Virus record (IMG/VR): IMGVR_UViG_2534681764_000015
Origin: a virus
Taxonomy: Duplodnaviria > Heunggongvirae > Uroviricota > Caudoviricetes
Reading direction: 5' to 3' (one strand)
DNA length: 35,465 bases
The position numbers and the translations under genes were made by a program. This document shows, piece by piece, positions 688-34,047 of the stretch (position 1 is the first letter of the stretch; every line of letters starts with the position of its first letter). The notes below the pieces were generated by a model that made no database searches, had not been told where the DNA came from, and saw only the letters and a list, made by a program, of their open reading frames with translations.

Positions 688-711
688 GGGACTCTTCGGA
701 GTCCCTTTTTT
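688..711 (+). terminator. rho-independent terminator candidate
   Basis: perfect hairpin GGGACTC-TTCG-GAGTCCC followed by TTTTTT; abuts stop codon of minus-strand gene 710..1654. Confidence 0.55.
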
Positions 712-1654
712 ATTGGCAGTAAGAAAAGTTAGTACCGTACATTTCATCATGAAGCATTGCAACATTGCGTTTCTGTTCTTCTTCCTCGTCTACCGCATCA
801 CTAGAAAAATGAGATTTGCCCTTAAAAGAACGAAGCAATTGCAGTGCAGCCATCGGATCACGCATCACATCGATTTTCACTTCTACTTCATCATTTGCGG
901 CCTCATCAGCCGCATTTTCAACTACTGCCACCGGAGCAACTTCTTTAGCTTTCAGTTCTTCAATCTCAGCTTTCTGTGCTTCGATGATCTGGTCTTTTTC
1001 TTCCAGCGCAGCTTTCAGTTCTGCGATCTGTGCTTCCAGTGCAGAGAAACGATCTTCAACAGCAACCGGAGAAACAGCATTAACCTGTGCTTCCAGTTCT
1101 ACGAAAGCGTCGCAAGATTCAATACGTGCTTTTTCTTCACCTTCATATGCAACCAGTTCTACTACTTCTTTCTCAGTAGTGTGGCTGTTAAAGAATACAG
1201 CAAAGTAAGGATTGCCGGATTTGGTGAAGTTCAGTTTAGCTTTTCCGGTAACTTCTTTACGACGACCAAAGGTAATGTTGCAATCAGCGGTATCCTGAAA
1301 ATCCATGTTAGGAGCGGAAACGATAGCAGTATCACCAGCAATCACTAGGTGGAACAGTTCAGAAGAGTTCTTAACGGTGAAAGTAACGATGTGGTCTACT
1401 GCAACGTCTTTAGCAGGTTTAACGCGGTCGATTGCTTTACGAATGCCGTTAGGCAGTTTACCGTCAACACCAAAGCCAGCCGCGATCAGTGCTTCACGAT
1501 GTGCTTTAAAGCCAGCGAAAGCGGATTTCTGCTGCGCAAAGGAAACATGAGCAACAACTTTCGGCTGAATCTTCTTGTTTGCTTCGGTGCCAAATTTGAT
1601 AACTGCTTTAGCGTTGGTTACTTCGTTAGTGAAAAAGTTAGCGGAAAATAACAT
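710..1654 (-). CDS. hypothetical protein with central coiled coil and acidic C-terminal tail (314 aa)
   Basis: long ORF with AGGAG 8 nt upstream of ATG; heptad-like segment ALEAQIAELKAALEEKDQIIEAQKAEIEELKAK; function not recognised. Confidence 0.6.
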   Translation of the reverse strand: MLFSANFFTNEVTNAKAVIKFGTEANKKIQPKVVAHVSFAQQKSAFAGFKAHREALIAAGFGVDGKLPNGIRKAIDRVKPAKDVAVDHIVTFTVKNSSELFHLVIAGDTAIVSAPNMDFQDTADCNITFGRRKEVTGKAKLNFTKSGNPYFAVFFNSHTTEKEVVELVAYEGEEKARIESCDAFVELEAQVNAVSPVAVEDRFSALEAQIAELKAALEEKDQIIEAQKAEIEELKAKEVAPVAVVENAADEAANDEVEVKIDVMRDPMAALQLLRSFKGKSHFSSDAVDEEEEQKRNVAMLHDEMYGTNFSYCQ

Positions 1655-1769: not shown

Positions 1770-1949
1770 TTAACAAACTTGAACGTTAATCTTTACCTGA
1801 ATTTCGTATTTCTTCATTAGCTTGTAGAATCCGCTTCTATCAATTCCTTCCTTCTTAAAGAAGTTTTCCCCGCCTCGCTCAGTGTCGCTGTAAAAGCGTT
1901 TAGCAATATCAACAATCATTTCACGAGTGAACTTAACAGGTCTAGCCAT
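1770..1949 (-). CDS. small putative DNA-binding protein, GRP/ARP-motif family (59 aa)
   Basis: ATG at 1949 with GAGGAA 9 nt upstream (ORF track starts at GTG 1964); N-terminal ARPVKFTREMIVDIAKRFY and C-terminal GFYKLMKKYEI motifs shared with 5376..5609. Confidence 0.5.
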   Translation of the reverse strand: MARPVKFTREMIVDIAKRFYSDTERGGENFFKKEGIDRSGFYKLMKKYEIQVKINVQVC

Positions 1950-2048
1950 CAGTCGATTCCTCACATGTGGATTAATAATTTCTTAAAAAAGAGCATTTCG
2001 CTCTGAACACTTGTATTTATAAAATGATTTTCAGAAAACCCTGTAAAA

Positions 2049-2070
2049 CCACTGTATATCCGATCAGTGG
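2049..2070. promoter_or_regulatory. 22-bp palindrome CCACTGTATATCCGATCAGTGG, SOS-box-like operator candidate
   Basis: CTGT-N8-TCAG core, one mismatch from LexA CTGT-N8-ACAG; perfect 6-bp dyad arms. Confidence 0.4.
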
Positions 2071-2133
2071 GAGCACGAATTGCTAAAGAGAAGATTAATT
2101 ATTAATCAATTCGTACAATATTCAACCGAAAAA

Positions 2134-2155
2134 GCACTGTATATCTAACCAGTGC
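2134..2155. promoter_or_regulatory. 22-bp palindrome GCACTGTATATCTAACCAGTGC, second SOS-box-like operator candidate
   Basis: shares ACTGTATATC with first box; outer arm base changed compensatorily so dyad symmetry is kept. Confidence 0.4.
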
Positions 2156-2306
2156 TGTATGAATTAGCAGTGAATCAGGAGATTTTCAGAAGTGAACAAT
2201 CATTTCACACATGTATTTATAACGTGGAAATTCTTGCTTATCATCTATATGGGGACTGTTTAGAAAATTTCAACCCCCACCAGTGAGAAAAAGTATAAAA
2301 TAATCC

Positions 2307-2320
2307 TTGACAGTTGTCAA
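2307..2320. promoter_or_regulatory. palindrome TTGACAGTTGTCAA (operator or -35 candidate)
   Basis: perfect inverted repeat of TTGACA hexamer; related palindrome at 3829..3848. Confidence 0.3.
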
Positions 2321-2516
2321 TACACTTGACCTAAGCGAGAAATGACTATCAAAATTTTTGTTTGAAAATGGTAGATCAGGATTATCAACCTTTATAACCT
2401 ATTATAGCACGGAGACCTTTTGACAATTCTTTTTAAATCATTAACTTACGCCACTTTTTGGTGATTTTTTGATTAAATAATATACAAGAATTTTCTATCA
2501 AAATATTTGATGGGAA

Positions 2517-2711
2517 TTGCCCCTGAAATTCTGAATTTTGCCCCCGAACCAAAATACCCAAGATTCCACTATCCCATTTTTGCCCCTGAAACCCACTATT
2601 TTTGCCCCTGAAATTCTGGGAAACAGTGATTTTGCCCCTCATTTTTGCCCCTGAAATGCCAATAATTGCCCCTGAAAATCTAATTTTTGCCCCTGAAATT
2701 TGCCCCCGAAA
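2517..2711 (+). repeat. array of nine direct iterons, consensus TTTTGCCCCTGAAA
   Basis: copies starting 2517, 2538, 2580, 2602, 2632, 2645, 2666, 2687, 2700; spacings mostly 21 bp multiples; no ORF. Confidence 0.7.
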
Positions 2712-2844
2712 AGGATTGGTAAGAAAAACTCTTTATAAAACATTAACTTAGTGAGGGGTAAAACGGGGAATCGGGCGTGCATAGATATTATATAACACAT
2801 TCGCTACGCTCATGTGTAAAACCAAAAATAACCAAAAAGATATT

Positions 2845-2864
2845 AGGAGGGCTTTGCCCGACTG
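2845..2864 (+). repeat. left copy of 20-bp direct repeat AGGAGGGCTTTGCCCGACTG
   Basis: 19/20 identical to copy at 3238..3257. Confidence 0.6.
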
Positions 2865-2974
2865 CGCGTAGCGCTAACCAATTACTTCTAGTAACAACTA
2901 ATTTAAACTAGATGATACTAGATGGTCTTAGAAGGAATTAACTAGTTTGCTCGCTCGCTTCGCTCACTCTCAAA

Positions 2975-2997
2975 CGTCTGCGACGCCACTGCGTGGC
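2975..2997. promoter_or_regulatory. GC-rich twin palindrome CGTCTGCGACG / GCCACTGCGTGGC
   Basis: two abutting perfect palindromes in an otherwise AT-rich non-coding region; candidate protein-recognition or cleavage site. Confidence 0.3.
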
Positions 2998-3237
2998 ATC
3001 GAGAATCACTTTTGAAAGGATTTTCTTAGAAAGGGATTTTAATACTAGATGATAACTGATTCTAGTAAACGAACGAAGTGAGTAACAATCACTTTCTAGA
3101 AAGGTATTGGTTATCCCTTCGGGATCGCAACCTGCGGTTGCTGAAATTGCTTCCTGATTATTCTTTCTTCGAAAGAAAGATTCTTATATTCTAAAGATAC
3201 TTCTTCGTTTTGATGATGATTTAATCAAAATCTATGA

Positions 3238-3257
3238 AGGAGGGCTATGCCCGACTG
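3238..3257 (+). repeat. right copy of 20-bp direct repeat AGGAGGGCTATGCCCGACTG
   Basis: 19/20 identical to copy at 2845..2864; lies about 90 bp upstream of gene 3348. Confidence 0.6.
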
Positions 3258-3347
3258 AATACCAATCCCTTCCAAATAGATAAAAAATTCTCGTTATAAA
3301 TACTAGTGTAATTTGTTTGATTCACTTTCTTTTAGAGGATTTCCACT

Positions 3348-3806
3348 ATGAACCACAAGATGACTACCACTACTCCTTTTATCCTTCTGGGTCTGGATTC
3401 TGATAGCTTCCACAATGACAAGTTAATGAAGATGTTCCGTGAACGTGGTTATAACATCCTTTTCAACTCTGATGAATCCCATTTCTCTAGTGCATGGTAT
3501 GCGTTTTGCCGTAATAAGAAGCCGACCATTGTTGTTAACGTCTTCACCGATGAAGAACGCTTAAAGTACCAGAATCTACCAGCAATTATTGTTCGTGATG
3601 ATCTGCCGTTTCAAGTCCGTTCCGGTGACATTGACCTGGGTAGCTTCTTGACTCTTCGTGAACTGGATGAAGCAATGTTTAATTACGGTAAAGAAACCGC
3701 TCAGGAAGCCCCAGAACAAGATGAGGAAGACGAAGACTACGCACCAATCGCTTTCTCTTCTCACGGTGGCTTCTACGGTTACGATGAAGGCTTAGATATG
3801 CTGTAA
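3348..3806 (+). CDS. hypothetical early protein with acidic C-terminal tail (152 aa)
   Basis: ORF with AGAGGA RBS; C-terminal EAPEQDEEDEDYAPIAF; first gene after the 1.4-kb non-coding region. Confidence 0.6.
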   Translation: MNHKMTTTTPFILLGLDSDSFHNDKLMKMFRERGYNILFNSDESHFSSAWYAFCRNKKPTIVVNVFTDEERLKYQNLPAIIVRDDLPFQVRSGDIDLGSFLTLRELDEAMFNYGKETAQEAPEQDEEDEDYAPIAFSSHGGFYGYDEGLDML

Positions 3807-5182: not shown

Positions 5183-5188
5183 TAATTT

Positions 5189-5216
5189 TTGCCCCTGAAT
5201 TTCAGGGGCTTTTTTG
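5189..5216 (+). terminator. rho-independent terminator built from the iteron motif
   Basis: TTTTGCCCCTGAATTTCAGGGGC hairpin followed by TTTTTTG, directly after stop of 4349..5182. Confidence 0.65.
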
Positions 5217-5375: not shown

Positions 5376-5609
5376 TCAAAAACCTGTTGCTTCTACGATC
5401 TGACCATCACCGATCTGAACATAGAATTTAATGTCCAACTTCTTCATATTCTTATAGAATTGGGCGATTGAGATCCCATGTTCACTAAGAATCTGTTCTT
5501 TCGCTTCCTTACCACGATCCGCTGTATAATAAGCGTAGGCAATATCAGCCATCTGTTCAGCGTTAAAACGGGCAGGGCGACCGCGAGTAGCTTTAGTAGT
5601 CATAGTCAT
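5376..5609 (-). CDS. small putative DNA-binding protein, GRP-motif family (77 aa)
   Basis: ATG at 5609 with GGAGA upstream (track start 5636 is GTG); TRGRPARFNAEQMADIAYAYY and FYKNMKKLDI motifs paralogous to 1770..1949. Confidence 0.5.
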   Translation of the reverse strand: MTMTTKATRGRPARFNAEQMADIAYAYYTADRGKEAKEQILSEHGISIAQFYKNMKKLDIKFYVQIGDGQIVEATGF

Positions 5610-5638
5610 TTTCTCCAAATTAAAGTGAATGTTCACCT

Positions 5639-6244
5639 TTATTTAGAGGACTTACATTTTATCGGAAAAAGTTCTCCATCGTCAACCGACATAAAGAACT
5701 CTGCCTTAATCCCGTACTTCTTCAACCGTGAATAATATGTACCCCGACTAATATCAACCTTGCGCAGCACTTCGAAGAACTCTTTAGGATTCCTGTAATA
5801 GTGGCTATATCGCACGTTAGCGAGTTCTACAAACAATTCCCTTGAATCACCATAGCCTTTCTTAAAAGCCACATTACGATAGCGTGTAATGGCATGATTC
5901 AATCTCTTCTGTTTAAGCACTTCCCTAATCGGTGTCCACTGCAACCGATAGATAGGACCGTCATCTACTCGATAGAATCGCTTAATGTCAAAATCAAACC
6001 ATTCACGAACTCTATTAAACTCTGTCTGTGATGTACGATGCTTCTTAAAGAAGTTATGAATATCGGTATACCCATGATCGCGATACAACTCGATTAAAAT
6101 CTGTTTAGCTTCCTCACGACTAAAGCCAGATGTTGTGTAATCAGTCTTCTTGTGATGGTGCTTAACTGGCAAACGATATTCATGATCGGTACAACAAGAA
6201 AAGGCTAATTCTAATGCATCTCTTTGTTGCTGATTAATTAGCAT
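5639..6244 (-). CDS. hypothetical protein with C-terminal HTH-like motif (201 aa)
   Basis: ORF divergent from terminase; C-terminal ISRGTYYSRLKKYGI resembles the C-terminal motif of the two small GRP-family proteins. Confidence 0.55.
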   Translation of the reverse strand: MLINQQQRDALELAFSCCTDHEYRLPVKHHHKKTDYTTSGFSREEAKQILIELYRDHGYTDIHNFFKKHRTSQTEFNRVREWFDFDIKRFYRVDDGPIYRLQWTPIREVLKQKRLNHAITRYRNVAFKKGYGDSRELFVELANVRYSHYYRNPKEFFEVLRKVDISRGTYYSRLKKYGIKAEFFMSVDDGELFPIKCKSSK

Positions 6245-6331
6245 ACACCCCCCTTAAATCTTAATACCCGTATTTATCAAAATATCAACAATTTAATAAA
6301 TACCTTCATATTTCGTAATGAGGGTAATTAC

Positions 6332-8236
6332 ATGAAACTGATTTCTAATAAGGCAAAATTAAAAAAGATTCTCAGAAATATCTCTGCTGCAATTCGCCCA
6401 CCTAAAGCCATGAAACCTAGCGAATGGGTAGAGGCTAATGTAGTTGCAACCGATGGTGTTAAAGCCGGATCGCTAATTAAATTGCATCCTTTCCAACGTG
6501 GGATGATGGACGCGATCACCGAAGATAGGCGAAAAATTGTGCTAAAGTGCTCGGCGCAGTTGGGTAAAACTCTTGTGCTAAACGGTATTATCTTTCATAG
6601 GATCGCCAGCAACCCCACTAATATAGGTGTTTTGCAAGCAAACGTCCGCGAGTTGAATAGCTGGATCGCGGGTAAGGTGAAGCCAGTATTAGAGGCAACC
6701 CCAGAATTAAAGGCGATGATCACCGACAAGTCAGATCGCAATGCCGTTAACAACTCATCGATTATTCAGCTTCGTAACGGATCATTCATGTATTTCATGT
6801 CGTTGAATAGTCCATCACATCTTCGCGGTAAAACACTACCTTTGATTATTCTTGATGAAGTTGATGCGGCTGATGAGTCAGACGAAGGGAACCCGATCCA
6901 GCTAGCGGAACAACGCGCAACCACTTTCGGTGATGATGCAAGGATCGTAATTGCTTCTACTCCAACTTCGCGGGATGGGGCGATAAACCAACAATGGGAA
7001 CTCTCGGATAAAAGAAAATACCACGTCGTTTGCCAGCATTGCGGACACAAACACGTAATGGAATGGAGTAGAGTATTCTTTGATTGGCATGTAATCAATG
7101 GTAAATCACTGCCGAATCCAGACACAGCCGTTTACCGTTGCCCGTCATGTGAAACTGATTGGTCAGAACCAGATCGCCTCCGTGCTGTTGCTCAGGGAGA
7201 ATGGGTCGCCACCGAACCAAATGCGGAAGTAATCGGTTTTCATGCTAACCGCCTTATGTCTCCGTTTAGTTCTATCCGTGCGTGTGTGGTGGACTTTGCT
7301 GATAGCTACGCGAATATGTCGCTGGCAACGTTCTATAATGTGGTGCTCGGTGAAACCTTCGATGATCTTAACGAAGACCGCACAGCCGACGAACTGGAAA
7401 CGCTGAAAACTGACATTAGCTTAGATAATATTCCTGATGATGTTTTGGCTCTGGTAGGTGGAGTTGACCAGCAAAAAGACCGTCTGGAATCTACCTTGCT
7501 GGGTATCTCTCGTAAAGGGATATGCGTAGTTGATCACCGATCATTCTATGATGTGAACTGCGAACGCCACGAATCACCAGCATATGACCAGCTTTACAAC
7601 TTCCTGAAAGCAAAATTCTATACCCGATCCGGTCAACGAATCCCGATGCTATCCGCTTTCGTGGACTCATCAAACGGACGAGCTACGCAAGTGATCTACC
7701 GCTTTTGCACTAGGTGGCAAAATCTATGCGCCATTAAGGGCGCAAGTAATGTTGATGCTCCAATCCTTCCGGTAAAAGACACAAGAACGGGCGGTTTTAC
7801 CCTTAAAATTCTGGGCGTAAACAACCTTAAGACGATGATCCGTGAAATGATTAACCGGAACTTGAGAGACAGCGATCCTCATACGGTCTTCCAGATTGGT
7901 GACGTTCCTGATGACTACTGCGAGCAATTGCTATCTGAACAGTTGAAACGGCAGGGTAATACCACACGTTGGGTAAAAGTTGGTCAGCAACGCAACGAGG
8001 GCTTGGACTGCCTAACCTATGCGGTGGCTAGTTATCGCCATGTACTCAATAAAATGTCATGGGAAAAACTCGAAGCCATCAAAGATAGTTTGAACCGTGA
8101 ACCAGAAGAATCCGTAGAAGCTCCTAAATCGCAATCTGACGAGCAAATCGAAGAAAATAAGCCAATCACACGACCACAACGTAAAAACATCGCCAGACGC
8201 CCAAATAGAGGCCGTAGCTGGGTAACATCGTTCTAA
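6332..8236 (+). CDS. terminase large subunit, GpA (lambda) type (634 aa)
   Basis: Walker A-like CSAQLGKT, Walker B-like LIILDEVDAADE, Cys cluster CQHCGH...CPSC, size and position ahead of portal. Confidence 0.85.
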   Translation: MKLISNKAKLKKILRNISAAIRPPKAMKPSEWVEANVVATDGVKAGSLIKLHPFQRGMMDAITEDRRKIVLKCSAQLGKTLVLNGIIFHRIASNPTNIGVLQANVRELNSWIAGKVKPVLEATPELKAMITDKSDRNAVNNSSIIQLRNGSFMYFMSLNSPSHLRGKTLPLIILDEVDAADESDEGNPIQLAEQRATTFGDDARIVIASTPTSRDGAINQQWELSDKRKYHVVCQHCGHKHVMEWSRVFFDWHVINGKSLPNPDTAVYRCPSCETDWSEPDRLRAVAQGEWVATEPNAEVIGFHANRLMSPFSSIRACVVDFADSYANMSLATFYNVVLGETFDDLNEDRTADELETLKTDISLDNIPDDVLALVGGVDQQKDRLESTLLGISRKGICVVDHRSFYDVNCERHESPAYDQLYNFLKAKFYTRSGQRIPMLSAFVDSSNGRATQVIYRFCTRWQNLCAIKGASNVDAPILPVKDTRTGGFTLKILGVNNLKTMIREMINRNLRDSDPHTVFQIGDVPDDYCEQLLSEQLKRQGNTTRWVKVGQQRNEGLDCLTYAVASYRHVLNKMSWEKLEAIKDSLNREPEESVEAPKSQSDEQIEENKPITRPQRKNIARRPNRGRSWVTSF

Positions 8237-12574: not shown

Positions 12575-12865
12575 ATGTTCAAATTATCAGAATCACAATT
12601 ATCAAGAATGTTTAAGAGTGCTCCTGTATTTTCGGTGGAAGGTGGTAAATCAATTCGTGCTTACCATGAAATTACTACTACCGACGAATCAGGGGTAATG
12701 ACAGAGACAGAATTTCTATTTTGTCGTGAGGGAGACTTAAATCAGGGTGATATTGTCATTGTAGAAAACCAGCGTTTCAAAGTTCAATATATTAAGCGCA
12801 ATGGTGACAATACTTCTGATTGCTTTATTACTCTGGCAGGGGGTACACATGCTCGCTACCGTTAA
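12575..12865 (+). CDS. head-tail joining/completion protein candidate (96 aa)
   Basis: small ORF after capsid with AAGGGGGTAA RBS; assignment by position only. Confidence 0.4.
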   Translation: MFKLSESQLSRMFKSAPVFSVEGGKSIRAYHEITTTDESGVMTETEFLFCREGDLNQGDIVIVENQRFKVQYIKRNGDNTSDCFITLAGGTHARYR

Positions 12866-13271
12866 TAACATGCCTAGACTGAAAATCAAACGCGCCTTGC
12901 AAGATATTATCGAACAAGATCTAGGTCTGGCTTTAAACGTAGAACAAACCCAAACCGGATTTTCGGAATCTGTTGTGTGTTGGATTACTGGCATGAATGA
13001 AACTTATACGCGTGTTCGTGGCGGTAATGCAATGCAAGCTGAATGCGTTATCGAAATGCAGTTATATTCTCAGATTCATGAAACGAAAATTCATGAGGGT
13101 ATTTGCCAGATAATCCAGATTCAGCCGGATAACCCACGTTTTAAAGATTTGGGCTTCTCTATTTCAGATATCACTCCAGTAGCTTCTAATACCGATTATG
13201 ACGATGATTCTAGTGATGGGGGTATCGTTGGGACACTTAGCCTTAAATTTTCTTATCTAGCGCGTTTTTAA
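12849..13271 (+). CDS. head-tail joining/completion protein candidate (about 140 aa)
   Basis: ORF track 12801..13271; ATG at 12849 preferred because of GGGGG upstream; overlaps previous gene by 17 nt. Confidence 0.4.
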   Translation: MLATVNNMPRLKIKRALQDIIEQDLGLALNVEQTQTGFSESVVCWITGMNETYTRVRGGNAMQAECVIEMQLYSQIHETKIHEGICQIIQIQPDNPRFKDLGFSISDITPVASNTDYDDDSSDGGIVGTLSLKFSYLARF

Positions 13272-32318: not shown

Positions 32319-33998
32319 TTAAATTCCAAATTCCTGTAATGGACCTGGTATTTCCTCTTCTGGTTTCCAGTTCTTATCTGTCAGCATGTCTAAACATGGA
32401 TGCAAAACAAGCCCGTTACTCTCCAGAATCTGCCTATCATTGATAGTTTTCAAATCAATGAATATCCGGCCTTTCCTCGTTCCTCTTGAATTTTCTATTA
32501 CAACTCTCTGGGTCTTTCCATCGATGTATTCCAGCACAAACAAGTTTTTATTTCTGTCAATCCTGCTACACCCGATCCGCTTTAGAGCTTGCTTAATCTT
32601 AAACCGGACCTTTAGTCGTTCCTCGTTATAAACATCTTCTAAATCAAATTCTGCGAGCTTCTCCCAGCCTTGAGAGTCCACAGAATACATTTCCTCTTCT
32701 GCCATCTTGATCTGATTGTAGAGTGTTTCACGCTCGCTATTGAGGGTAGTAATCTGATCGGCTAGCTCCTTCGTTGCTCCTGTCATAGCAGAAAGGGCAA
32801 TCAGGTTATCAATCTTGCGTGATATTTCATCAACCTGTACTTTCAACGCCGGAACCGGATTAGCCTTGTCCTCAGCAATCCAGATTTTATCAGCCAGCAA
32901 TTGCAATACAGCTTTCTCTAATTGATCACCTCGAAAACTCCAGTTTGGATGCTCGCAATCAAGTCTACGTGAACGGGTCGCATCACATGTATAACGATAC
33001 TGGTCAGAACGTTTGTTCGTTCCCTTCACTTTAACCATAGCGCAACCGCAATGATCACATTTCAATAGGCCAATACCACTAAGCAGGGGGATCGGTTTAA
33101 CTTCTTCCTTGTCTCCAAAGTTCCATGCTCTAGCACCAATATTTTTCTTAAGGTGATAGAACGTAGCATCATCAATAACACGAGGGTAATAATCCTTTAA
33201 CTCATAGTTAACACCATCTACAGAGACTTCCTTGATACCAATCAAAGCGCGGGTATGGAACAACCTTTCAACCATTGCCCGTGACCATTTTGAATGCTTC
33301 TTATTACTAACCGCTGGTGGCGGTGTATATGTCTCGTTAAGGTGATCCAGTATTTCGGCGGTTGAACGTCCATTCTTCCGTAATTCCACAATCTCCTGAA
33401 CAACAGGGAAGTATGTAGGATGAGGCAACACATAACCGGAAGTGGTATCCGTCCACCACATATTCTTTCCAACTTCCTCGATTGCCACTGCCGGATTCTG
33501 GGGATTTTCTTGATGGGCTTTAATCTTAATCAGTGCGCTTGAGTTAGTACGATTGCGCTTAGTCTGGCTTTCCTCATTACCACGGATGAATAAAAGGATG
33601 GAGAACATCAGGTCCATCGGGTTAGCGGTAACAGTATCCAGCGAGTAGATCTTGTTATCCATGCCAGTAACAATGGTTATCCCCCTACGGATGATTGAAA
33701 GGAATAACTCCTGCGCACTGACAATATCGGCACGGGATAAGCGGTCCAAGTTTTCAATGAATAGCCAGCTACCAACAGGAACGGATCTACCAATTGCATC
33801 AAGGAAACGAGATAGCGCCCCTGTTTTGGAGTTAGCACCCTTAAACGCAGATACACCCAGATCCTGATAATCATTTACCAGTTCAAGGTCATACTTTGCC
33901 GCAACCTCTCTCGCCATCCTGATTTGTCGTTCATAACTCGAACCATCATTCTGACGCATAGACGAGAAGCGAATATACGAATACAGTTTAGTTTTCAT
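32319..33998 (-). CDS. large serine recombinase (integrase-type) (about 559 aa)
   Basis: N-terminal LYSYIRFSSMRQ catalytic-Ser motif of the resolvase/invertase domain, Cys cluster CDHCGC...C...C (zinc ribbon), C-terminal coiled coil; ORF track extends to TTG at 34013. Confidence 0.85.
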   Translation of the reverse strand: MKTKLYSYIRFSSMRQNDGSSYERQIRMAREVAAKYDLELVNDYQDLGVSAFKGANSKTGALSRFLDAIGRSVPVGSWLFIENLDRLSRADIVSAQELFLSIIRRGITIVTGMDNKIYSLDTVTANPMDLMFSILLFIRGNEESQTKRNRTNSSALIKIKAHQENPQNPAVAIEEVGKNMWWTDTTSGYVLPHPTYFPVVQEIVELRKNGRSTAEILDHLNETYTPPPAVSNKKHSKWSRAMVERLFHTRALIGIKEVSVDGVNYELKDYYPRVIDDATFYHLKKNIGARAWNFGDKEEVKPIPLLSGIGLLKCDHCGCAMVKVKGTNKRSDQYRYTCDATRSRRLDCEHPNWSFRGDQLEKAVLQLLADKIWIAEDKANPVPALKVQVDEISRKIDNLIALSAMTGATKELADQITTLNSERETLYNQIKMAEEEMYSVDSQGWEKLAEFDLEDVYNEERLKVRFKIKQALKRIGCSRIDRNKNLFVLEYIDGKTQRVVIENSRGTRKGRIFIDLKTINDRQILESNGLVLHPCLDMLTDKNWKPEEEIPGPLQEFGI

Positions 33999-34010
33999 AC
34001 CATTTCCAAA

Positions 34011-34047
34011 CAAAAACGCCCCTACCGCGTATTATAACGATAGGGGC
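34011..34047 (-). terminator. rho-independent terminator candidate for gene 34062..34481
   Basis: minus-strand hairpin GCCCCTA...TAGGGGC followed by GTTTTTG. Confidence 0.45.

Follow-up and report, generated by a model that had tools for sequence, protein, structure and literature searches.

A helically phased iteron array and a co-varying protein family in an uncharacterised Escherichia coli prophage

We analyzed a 35,465-nt stretch of temperate phage DNA (IMG/VR record IMGVR_UViG_2534681764_000015; hereafter, the window) and found that its nine short direct repeats form a genuine, helically phased array in an uncharacterised E. coli prophage (Table 1). Relatives carry arrays of unrelated motifs at exactly this position, and the type of array matches the N-terminal variant of the protein encoded at the position of A314, a 314-aa ORFan, with no discordant locus. 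We infer from this co-variation that the array is very probably the specific double-stranded DNA target of A314 and is bound cooperatively.

The window encodes a gpA-type large terminase (TerL; 6332-8236), a lambda-type portal, a head protein with protease-like and major-capsid-like matches, tail genes, an M15 endolysin, and a large serine recombinase (32319-34013, minus strand). The host was identified through a collection of E. coli genomes: 58 of 5,426 complete genomes carried the prophage, inserted at ycdX, codB, or hicB, and all 64 prophage places in these genomes were chromosomal. Megablast against isolated phages and against plasmids gave no close match, and a literature search on the iteron motifs and on ycdX prophages found nothing relevant. 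A scan for a two-iteron pattern in one genome per species returned chance matches only, because the representative E. coli genome does not contain the prophage. Found in about 1% of complete E. coli genomes as well as in Shigella, the family has no studied relative, and no replication gene was recognizable in the full prophage of ~38 kb. ARAGORN called a tRNA-Glu(ttc) of 91 nt at 13036-13126 (minus strand), inside the opposite-strand ORF 12801-13271; this tRNA call is probably a false positive.

Table 1. Features of the array region in the window, and array types found at the same position in relatives
Feature	Position	Strand	Sequence or remark
A314, 314-aa ORFan, putative iteron binder	710-1654	-	Role proposed from co-variation
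64-aa GRP-arm/HTH protein	1770-1964	-	Promoter-proximal in the leftward operon of A314
Sigma-70 promoter	2292-2320	-	Near-consensus TTGACA-17-TATACT, leftward into the 64-aa HTH gene and A314; -35 inside palindrome TTGACAgtTGTCAA
Type A iteron array	2515-2711	+	Nine direct copies of TTTTGCCCCTGAAA, eight good and one degenerate, mostly on a ~21.3-bp lattice
Iteron 1	2515-2528	+	AATTGCCCCTGAAA
Iteron 2	2536-2549	+	TTTTGCCCCCGAAC
Type E-like heterologous copy	2555-2575	+	AAATACCCAAGATTCCACTAT; occupies the 42-bp gap of the array; type E motif AAATCCCCAAGATTCCAC occurs five times in L232
Iteron 3	2578-2591	+	TTTTGCCCCTGAAA
Iteron 4	2600-2613	+	TTTTGCCCCTGAAA
Iteron 5, degenerate	2630-2643	+	TTTTGCCCCTCATT; similar to type C motif TTTTTGCCCCTC
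Iteron 6	2643-2656	+	TTTTGCCCCTGAAA
Iteron 7	2664-2677	+	AATTGCCCCTGAAA
Iteron 8	2685-2698	+	TTTTGCCCCTGAAA
Iteron 9	2698-2711	+	ATTTGCCCCCGAAA
GAAAAGGATTGG motif, then AT-rich element AAAAACTCTTTATAAAACATTAACTTA	2712-2750	+	Imperfect IHF-like core; common to type E and partly to type C
Degenerate inverted iteron	2753-2766	-	GAGGGGTAAAA here; GAGGGGCAAAA in most relatives
Intrinsic terminator after the Rha-like gene	5187-5216	+	5' arm plus preceding T-run equals the iteron; no co-variation with array type
Type B array			AAACCTACACTA; 6-9 copies
Type C array			TTTTTGCCCCTC; 7 copies
Type D array			(A/T)TCCCCG; ~20-25 copies in two clusters around an AT-rich spacer (regex count 19)
Type E array			AATCCCCAAGATTCCAC / AAATCCCCAAGATTCCAC; 5 copies

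The array in the window and the DNA around it

The initial annotation had described nine same-orientation copies of one motif within 195 bp of a gene-free region, and the recount bore this out. Eight exact copies of TTGCCCCYGAA lie on the plus strand, starting at 2517, 2538, 2580, 2602, 2645, 2666, 2687, and 2700, and the ninth copy, at 2632, is degenerate (TTGCCCCTCAT). When one mismatch was allowed, the whole window held nine matches, the eight of the array and one at 5189, against an expectation of 0.98; none of 100 dinucleotide-preserving shuffles reached nine. Outside the array and the terminator, matches to the 14-mer TTTTGCCCCTGAAA with up to three mismatches occurred at the chance rate (6 observed, 5.3 expected). 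The start-to-start spacings claimed for the nine copies were reproduced exactly (21, 42, 22, 30, 13, 21, 21, and 13 bp). A lattice of ~21.3 bp holds seven of the copies, and each of the remaining two lies 13 bp from a lattice copy. The proposal that most copies share one helix face likewise stood: the best period was 10.7 bp (R = 0.85), a phasing equalled in 0.35% of random placements (P ~0.004). These features, phased direct repeats about two helical turns apart, are those of iteron origins and are consistent with an array of the cooperative protein-binding kind.

The only ORFs overlapping the array are short and derived from the repeats themselves; the array sits within a 1.4-kb noncoding stretch (1965-3347), and the matching ~1.4 kb is free of genes in the RefSeq annotation of almost all relatives. 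The type A array is conserved, at the same place, in 15 IMG/VR contigs and ~33 complete E. coli genomes with 6 to 14 copies, usually 6 to 9, the 14 being found in UTME-9 (L235 4761-5043). Insertions and deletions among relatives comprise whole iteron units. Chance and coding repeats were rejected as explanations of the array, as was a CRISPR array, given units of 14 bp, spacers of 0 to 28 bp that are conserved between relatives, and no cas genes.

AT-rich DNA flanks the array on both sides (2420-2515 and 2718-2750). Host-factor sites in the vicinity were few: one DnaA box lies ~100 bp away (2813-2821) and is not conserved in the other array types, and the search for a perfect IHF consensus near the array found imperfect, IHF-like sites only. 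A weak -10-like TATAAA follows the last iteron in types A and E and is absent from types B and D, and a scan for sigma-70 promoters found none in the array or directly after it. A strong predicted promoter, ~200 bp to the left of the array, points leftward (2320->2292) into the unit comprising the 64-aa GRP/HTH gene and the A314 gene. To the right of the array lies a rightward unit of p152, p110, and the Rha-like gene, with its own promoter-like signals 500 to 600 bp downstream of the array.

The surrounding DNA contains several further elements. A type E-like copy occupies the 42-bp gap of every type A array, and most arrays of types A and C are immediately preceded by one to three type B-like copies (L001 2856-2897 and comparable loci). 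A cassette, AGGAGGGCTNTGCCCGACTG, occurs twice (2845-2864 and 3238-3257), each time behind a -10-like hexamer; its hairpin is kept in relatives through compensatory changes (GGGC/GCCC, TGGC/GCCA, GGCC/GGCC, and GGC/GCC), and it may form the 5' stem-loop of transcripts. Repeated intergenic sequences of RB49-like T4-type phages match positions 3154-3235 at ~78% identity. In this region of the window (3113-3240), a promoter-like stretch follows two stable hairpins, ATCCCttcgGGGAT and GCAACctgcgGTTGC, and RB49 retains both hairpins with different sequence. On this comparison, the region looks like a "promoter plus stem-loop" cassette common to a temperate siphophage and T4-type phages.

The motif reappears in the terminator after the Rha-like gene, as the initial annotation had noticed. 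This element lies 9 nt past the Rha-like stop codon and has the makeup of an intrinsic terminator, a perfect 8-bp stem (GCCCCTGAA/TTCAGGGGC, 5191-5209) with a 3-nt loop followed by TTTTTT. The identity of its sequence with the iteron is unlikely to be chance. A functional link to the array is unsupported, however, because the same terminator also occurs in type B phages. Where the region was visible, 8 of 9 type A loci and 6 of 9 type B loci had the terminator with the type A motif, and the type B phages that share it have a different iteron and a different protein.

Array types and the protein encoded at the A314 position

Across the five array types (Table 1), the repeats are direct, C-rich and G-poor on the plus strand, and spaced mostly by 11 or 21 to 23 bp, with best periods of 10.6 to 11.3 bp. 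Phasing was pronounced in types A, B, C, and E (R of 0.79 to 0.94) and reached only 0.55 in type D. That independent motif types share helical phasing suggests double-stranded DNA read on one face of the helix. We also weighed an element acting at the RNA level: a protein sponge, a C-rich site for Rho loading, or a trans partner of the 5191-5209 hairpin. Such a role would account for the copies lying on one strand, for the base composition shared by all five motifs, and for the motif serving as the 5' arm of the terminator. It is nevertheless very unlikely, since the phasing at 10.6 to 11.3 bp that independent motif types show is characteristic of double-stranded DNA, no Rfam family matched the window at the gathering threshold, no predicted promoter drives the array, and the terminator is independent of array type.

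Type A arrays accompany A314 at 16 loci, and type B arrays accompany the 343-aa protein B343, together with an 80-aa coiled-coil ORF, at 14 loci representing 12 distinct prophages. Among complete genomes, the A gene occurs together with the A array in ~33, the B gene in 18, the whole D module in 6, and type E in 1; the B array was checked directly in 3 of the 18 B-gene genomes and deduced in the others from a missing type A segment. The lysogens PD23 and 266917_2 have A314 genes 99.6 to 99.7% identical to that of the window. The compared genomes are related, so these counts do not represent independent events. Short metagenome contigs with the A314 gene alone are mosaic junctions, not transcripts.

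The distribution of matches and mismatches along the proteins suggests which part carries the specificity. In their N-terminal parts, A314 and the type C protein are 47% identical, and the iterons of the two types share the core TTTTGCCCCT. Types C and E have a common C-terminal domain yet differ in both N terminus and iteron, indicating that specificity follows the N-terminal domain. In a related protein, P0129, this coiled coil and C-terminal domain follow an ORF6N DNA-binding domain, an arrangement that supports the N terminus as an exchangeable DNA-reading module.

Recombination between these phages separates the array from most genes other than that of A314. Situated between the A314 gene and the array, the 64-aa HTH gene and the left noncoding part have at least three alleles, which occur with several array types; alleles of p152, p110, the Rha-like gene, and TerL assort freely as well, and one mosaic breakpoint falls exactly at the start of the array. 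The outer segments (A314 gene and array) stay matched while the middle and the rest recombine, which argues for functional coupling. This co-variation establishes that protein and array are coupled, but not in which process. It also redirects the search for the binder. GRP-family proteins, the Rha-like protein, and a terminase small subunit had been put forward for binding assays, and all are disfavored, since the co-variation points to the protein encoded at 710-1654 (minus strand). The 64-aa GRP/HTH protein in particular is not the iteron binder, because its alleles do not follow array type.

The leftward unit and its surroundings hold other regulatory-looking elements. Three paralogues combine a GRP arm with an HTH (1770-1964, 5376-5636, and 5639-6244, all minus strand); the 201-aa paralogue has two GRP-arm/HTH copies, and the latter two genes are transcribed divergently from TerL. 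Two CACTG-N11-CAGTG palindromes (2049-2069 and 2134-2154) look like operators of the 64-aa protein. The motif TTATAAATA occurs five times against 0.9 expected (1654, 2014 minus strand, 2214 minus strand, 3294, and 31204). Three of the copies lie 43 to 54 nt upstream of the starts of p152, a 332-aa gene, and the 64-aa HTH gene, and TerL has a counterpart, TTAATAAATAC, at 6292. The motif resembles the T4 late-promoter sequence TATAAATA, with no clear -35 accompanying it. The p152 product (3348-3806) ends in ...EGLDML, resembling a beta-clamp-binding motif; this is a resemblance only.

The N-terminal half of A314 is basic and its C-terminal half acidic; a coiled coil and a short conserved C-terminal peptide complete the protein. 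All variants at its position follow this plan, with a basic N-terminal part of ~170 aa (pI 8.5 to 9.8), a coiled coil, and an acidic C-terminal half (pI 4.1 to 5.0). Comparison of A314 with Pfam, PHROG, and PDB sequences and folds gave no match, placing it in no known Rep or O family. An exhaustive HMMER search of 1.8 billion representative proteins returned 11 matches, one of them a spurious repeat protein; A314 has only two full-length distant relatives in that set. The A314 family is a new protein family. AF2 models were weak for A314 (pLDDT 58, with residues 30 to 115 alone reaching 70 to 84) and unusable for the type B protein (pLDDT 42). A profile-profile comparison of the A and B proteins aligned only the 20-residue C-terminal peptide (probability 78%) and revealed no homology of the N-terminal domains. 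A314 (codon adaptation index [CAI], 0.63) and the type B protein (0.70) have the highest codon adaptation of the phage, equal to the tail tube protein and above the major capsid protein, so A314 is probably abundant. Most C termini of the family end in ...AA (YAYAA, RKAA, RRAA, LKAA, and DFAA), which resemble ClpXP-type degrons in sequence only; that of A314 itself reads ...FSYCQ.

Type B phages contain three extra, inverted copies of AAACCTACAC (L104 4421, 4439, and 5476, minus strand; also in L105 and L106). They lie in the coding sequence of B343 and the 80-aa ORF, 1 to 2 kb from the main array, where ~0.07 would be expected per 10-mer. No equivalent secondary cluster of inverted sites was found in the type A window.

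Candidate roles of the array

We considered three roles proposed earlier for the array, namely, a recognition site for the terminase small subunit (TerS), a replication origin, and an operator array. The first has become highly improbable. Short repeats are the TerS sites of lambda (R sites with an IHF site) and P1 pac, and an IMG/VR contig of a relative (2529292882_000018; L005, L021; 34,246 bp) begins and ends inside the array. The two ends of this contig are exactly contiguous, though, which fits a circular assembly (or concatemeric genome) opened at its sole repeat better than true molecular ends. The initial annotation saw no small-subunit gene beside TerL, but a TerS gene does exist (phrog_57, E 8.5e-17): in all relatives examined, it is located directly to the left of the first window position, ~20 nt past the site of its stop codon. 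TerS is ~95 to 100% identical, and its N-terminal HTH identical, between type A and type B phages, and TerL alleles are independent of array type. The packaging reading fails because TerS does not change with the array type. Moreover, the array is 3.6 kb upstream of TerL and ~2.5 to 3 kb from the TerS gene, with opposite-strand genes between, rather than adjacent to either. Rejecting a cos or pac site matters for the annotation of packaging sites in such prophages.

The terminase genes themselves are arranged in an unusual split. The TerS gene (L102 17998-18552; L106 42560-43117) lies beside the attachment site, ~6 kb from TerL, with opposite-strand genes between. The window TerL is 57 to 58% identical to that of four relatives while adjoining genes are 88 to 99% identical, suggesting that the large terminase alone has been replaced by another allele.

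Of the three proposals, replication-origin iterons fit best, and we tentatively favor a complex of the array with A314 that serves as a lytic replication origin with an iteron-type initiator. Very probably, the basic N-terminal domain of A314 reads one iteron and the coiled coil links bound molecules, so that copies ~21 bp apart on one face are filled cooperatively, building a nucleoprotein complex. Acting like an iteron-plasmid Rep or lambda O, A314 would then mark the origin and distort or open the flanking AT-rich DNA, while its acidic C-terminal half and conserved C-terminal peptide may recruit host replication proteins. Five exchangeable specificities of protein and array could keep the initiator from use by co-resident relatives. 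Classically, an iteron origin consists of direct iterons two turns apart, and its cognate protein of ~300 aa is encoded nearby. The window has this layout, with AT-rich flanks and, from the co-variation of the five types, a nearby putative cognate protein whose specificity appears to match the site. The origin reading is further favored by the two iteron clusters flanking an AT-rich spacer in type D, by the confinement of the motif to a single locus rather than to promoters throughout the genome, and by the absence of any other recognizable replication gene in the prophage. Against it, the host-factor sites are weak (one nonconserved DnaA box and no perfect IHF site), the iterons are 13 to 14 bp long versus the 17 to 22 bp typical of plasmid iterons, A314 shows no Rep similarity, and a CAI of 0.63 to 0.70 points to an abundance that initiators do not usually have.

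The main rival, a possible reading that ranks behind the origin, retains the proposed operator array in a modified form: A314 would be a transcription regulator and the array a regulatory or immunity array. The protein could repress through a looped or filamentous complex as in Mu, or act as an activator or enhancer-binding protein, its targets being the leftward promoter or else rightward transcription into a 600-nt leader and the p152-p110-Rha operon. In that case, the five specificities would represent types of heteroimmunity or of regulatory individuality. The array does lie between divergent units (leftward HTH/A314 and rightward p152 onward) and near the strong leftward promoter, and protein and site co-vary as repressors and operators do among heteroimmune phages. 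The TATAAA element would center the last iteron near -43, the ORF6N domain that precedes the A314-like coiled coil and C-terminal domain of P0129 is of the "anti-repressor" kind, and the three inverted type B copies in the B343 operon would permit looping. On the other hand, no sigma-70 promoter is predicted in or just past the array, TATAAA is missing from types B and D, and the rightward operon has its own promoter-like signals well downstream. The hypervariable 64-aa HTH module, with palindromic operator candidates at 2049-2154, already looks like an immunity or switch module, and a very high CAI is not expected of a prophage repressor. Coexistence offers a further point in favor of regulation: UTME-9, the one polylysogen examined, combines a type A prophage (at hicB) with a type B prophage (at ycdX). 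These prophages differ in their HTH alleles as well as in the A/B module, however, so UTME-9 does not separate immunity from replication specificity.

High codon adaptation suggests another role, in which A314 would be an abundant genome organizer like phi29 p6 or ParB that nucleates on the array, spreads along or wraps phage DNA, and marks copies of the phage's own genome for replication, protection, or a switch in transcription. We regard this as quite unlikely. A314 and B343 have the highest CAI of the phage, the site repeat of ~21 to 23 bp is comparable to the 24-bp binding period of p6, the coiled coil permits oligomerization, and the copy number varies from 6 to 14 at one nucleation locus. 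Yet there is no sign of spreading and no gene for a partner NTPase, A314 resembles neither p6, ParB, nor KorB, and its abundance is indicated by codon adaptation only. Another reading, also unlikely, is that the A314 family forms a modular self-recognition system instead of a mere origin or operator, an abundant marker nucleated by the array on the phage's own genome copies. The parts of such a system would be an interchangeable N-terminal reader, the coiled coil, and the acidic tail. At least five specificities, together with the stray heterologous iterons, could then reflect kin discrimination or cross-exploitation among co-infecting relatives.

Phased direct repeats with a small oligomerizing binder are also typical of the plasmid partition centromeres of ParR/parC and TubR/tubC, and a role of this type can hardly be credited here. 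A partition system is unlikely because the partner gene is absent: neither the window nor a full-length relative contained a gene for a ParA-, ParM-, or TubZ-type NTPase. Integration by a serine recombinase, with chromosomal placement at every one of the 64 genome places, also speaks against it.

Comparison with known systems

The array and A314 together offer the best handle on how this phage replicates or switches. The five matched protein/site pairs may amount to a natural specificity-swap set for a DNA-binding fold that databases do not recognize, and orthogonal protein-DNA pairs for engineering could come from the series.

Theta-plasmid iteron origins (R6K gamma ori with pi, P1 oriR-incA with RepA, and pSC101 with RepA) share with the array five to nine same-orientation repeats at about two turns, a nearby cognate protein of ~300 aa without an enzymatic domain, an AT-rich flank, and co-varying specificity types. 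Unlike them, the iterons here measure 13 to 14 bp rather than 17 to 22 bp, no similarity to the winged helices of Rep_3 or RepA is detectable, no DnaA box is conserved, the phage integrates, and the protein is apparently abundant. The resemblance to lambda O and ori-lambda, and to the O/ori types of lambdoid phages, lies in an N-terminal domain that reads iterons and a C-terminal part that recruits (roles that are putative in A314) and in the joint exchange of protein and site. The lambda iterons, in contrast, are dyad symmetric, 19 bp long, and inside the O gene, which is followed by a P-like loader gene, whereas the sites here are direct and lie ~860 bp from the A314 gene, beyond another gene, with no recognizable loader.

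Short clustered iterons are also found in the Rep-ori systems of SaPI/PICI islands and in P4 alpha/ori/crr; type D, whose clusters flank an AT-rich spacer, is comparable. The SaPI/PICI Rep-ori pairs are island specific, and the secondary type B copies in the B343 operon recall P4 crr. The initiators of these systems have helicase/primase domains, and A314 has none. The Mu repressor binds ~9 short sites (O1 to O3) that occupy ~200 bp separating divergent units, possibly together with an IHF-like site, and combines an N-terminal DNA-binding domain (as proposed for A314), a coiled coil, and a C-terminal regulatory tail. The array here differs in that its sites are strictly direct and phased and do not overlap a predicted promoter, and no winged helix is detectable. 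Phi29 p6, abundant as A314 probably is, binds with a periodicity of ~24 bp, and it both activates the initiation of replication and modulates transcription; it is a protein of 103 aa that recognizes bendability rather than sequence, and A314 is not similar to it. Lambda cosB (R1 to R3 and I1) with gpNu1 presents short repeats, an inverted copy across an IHF-like site, and a gpA-type terminase, but here the Nu1-like small subunit does not co-vary and the array is not beside the terminase genes. Iteron arrays with a dedicated binding protein are known; the A314 family, its apparently high abundance, and a natural series of five specificities at a single locus are new.
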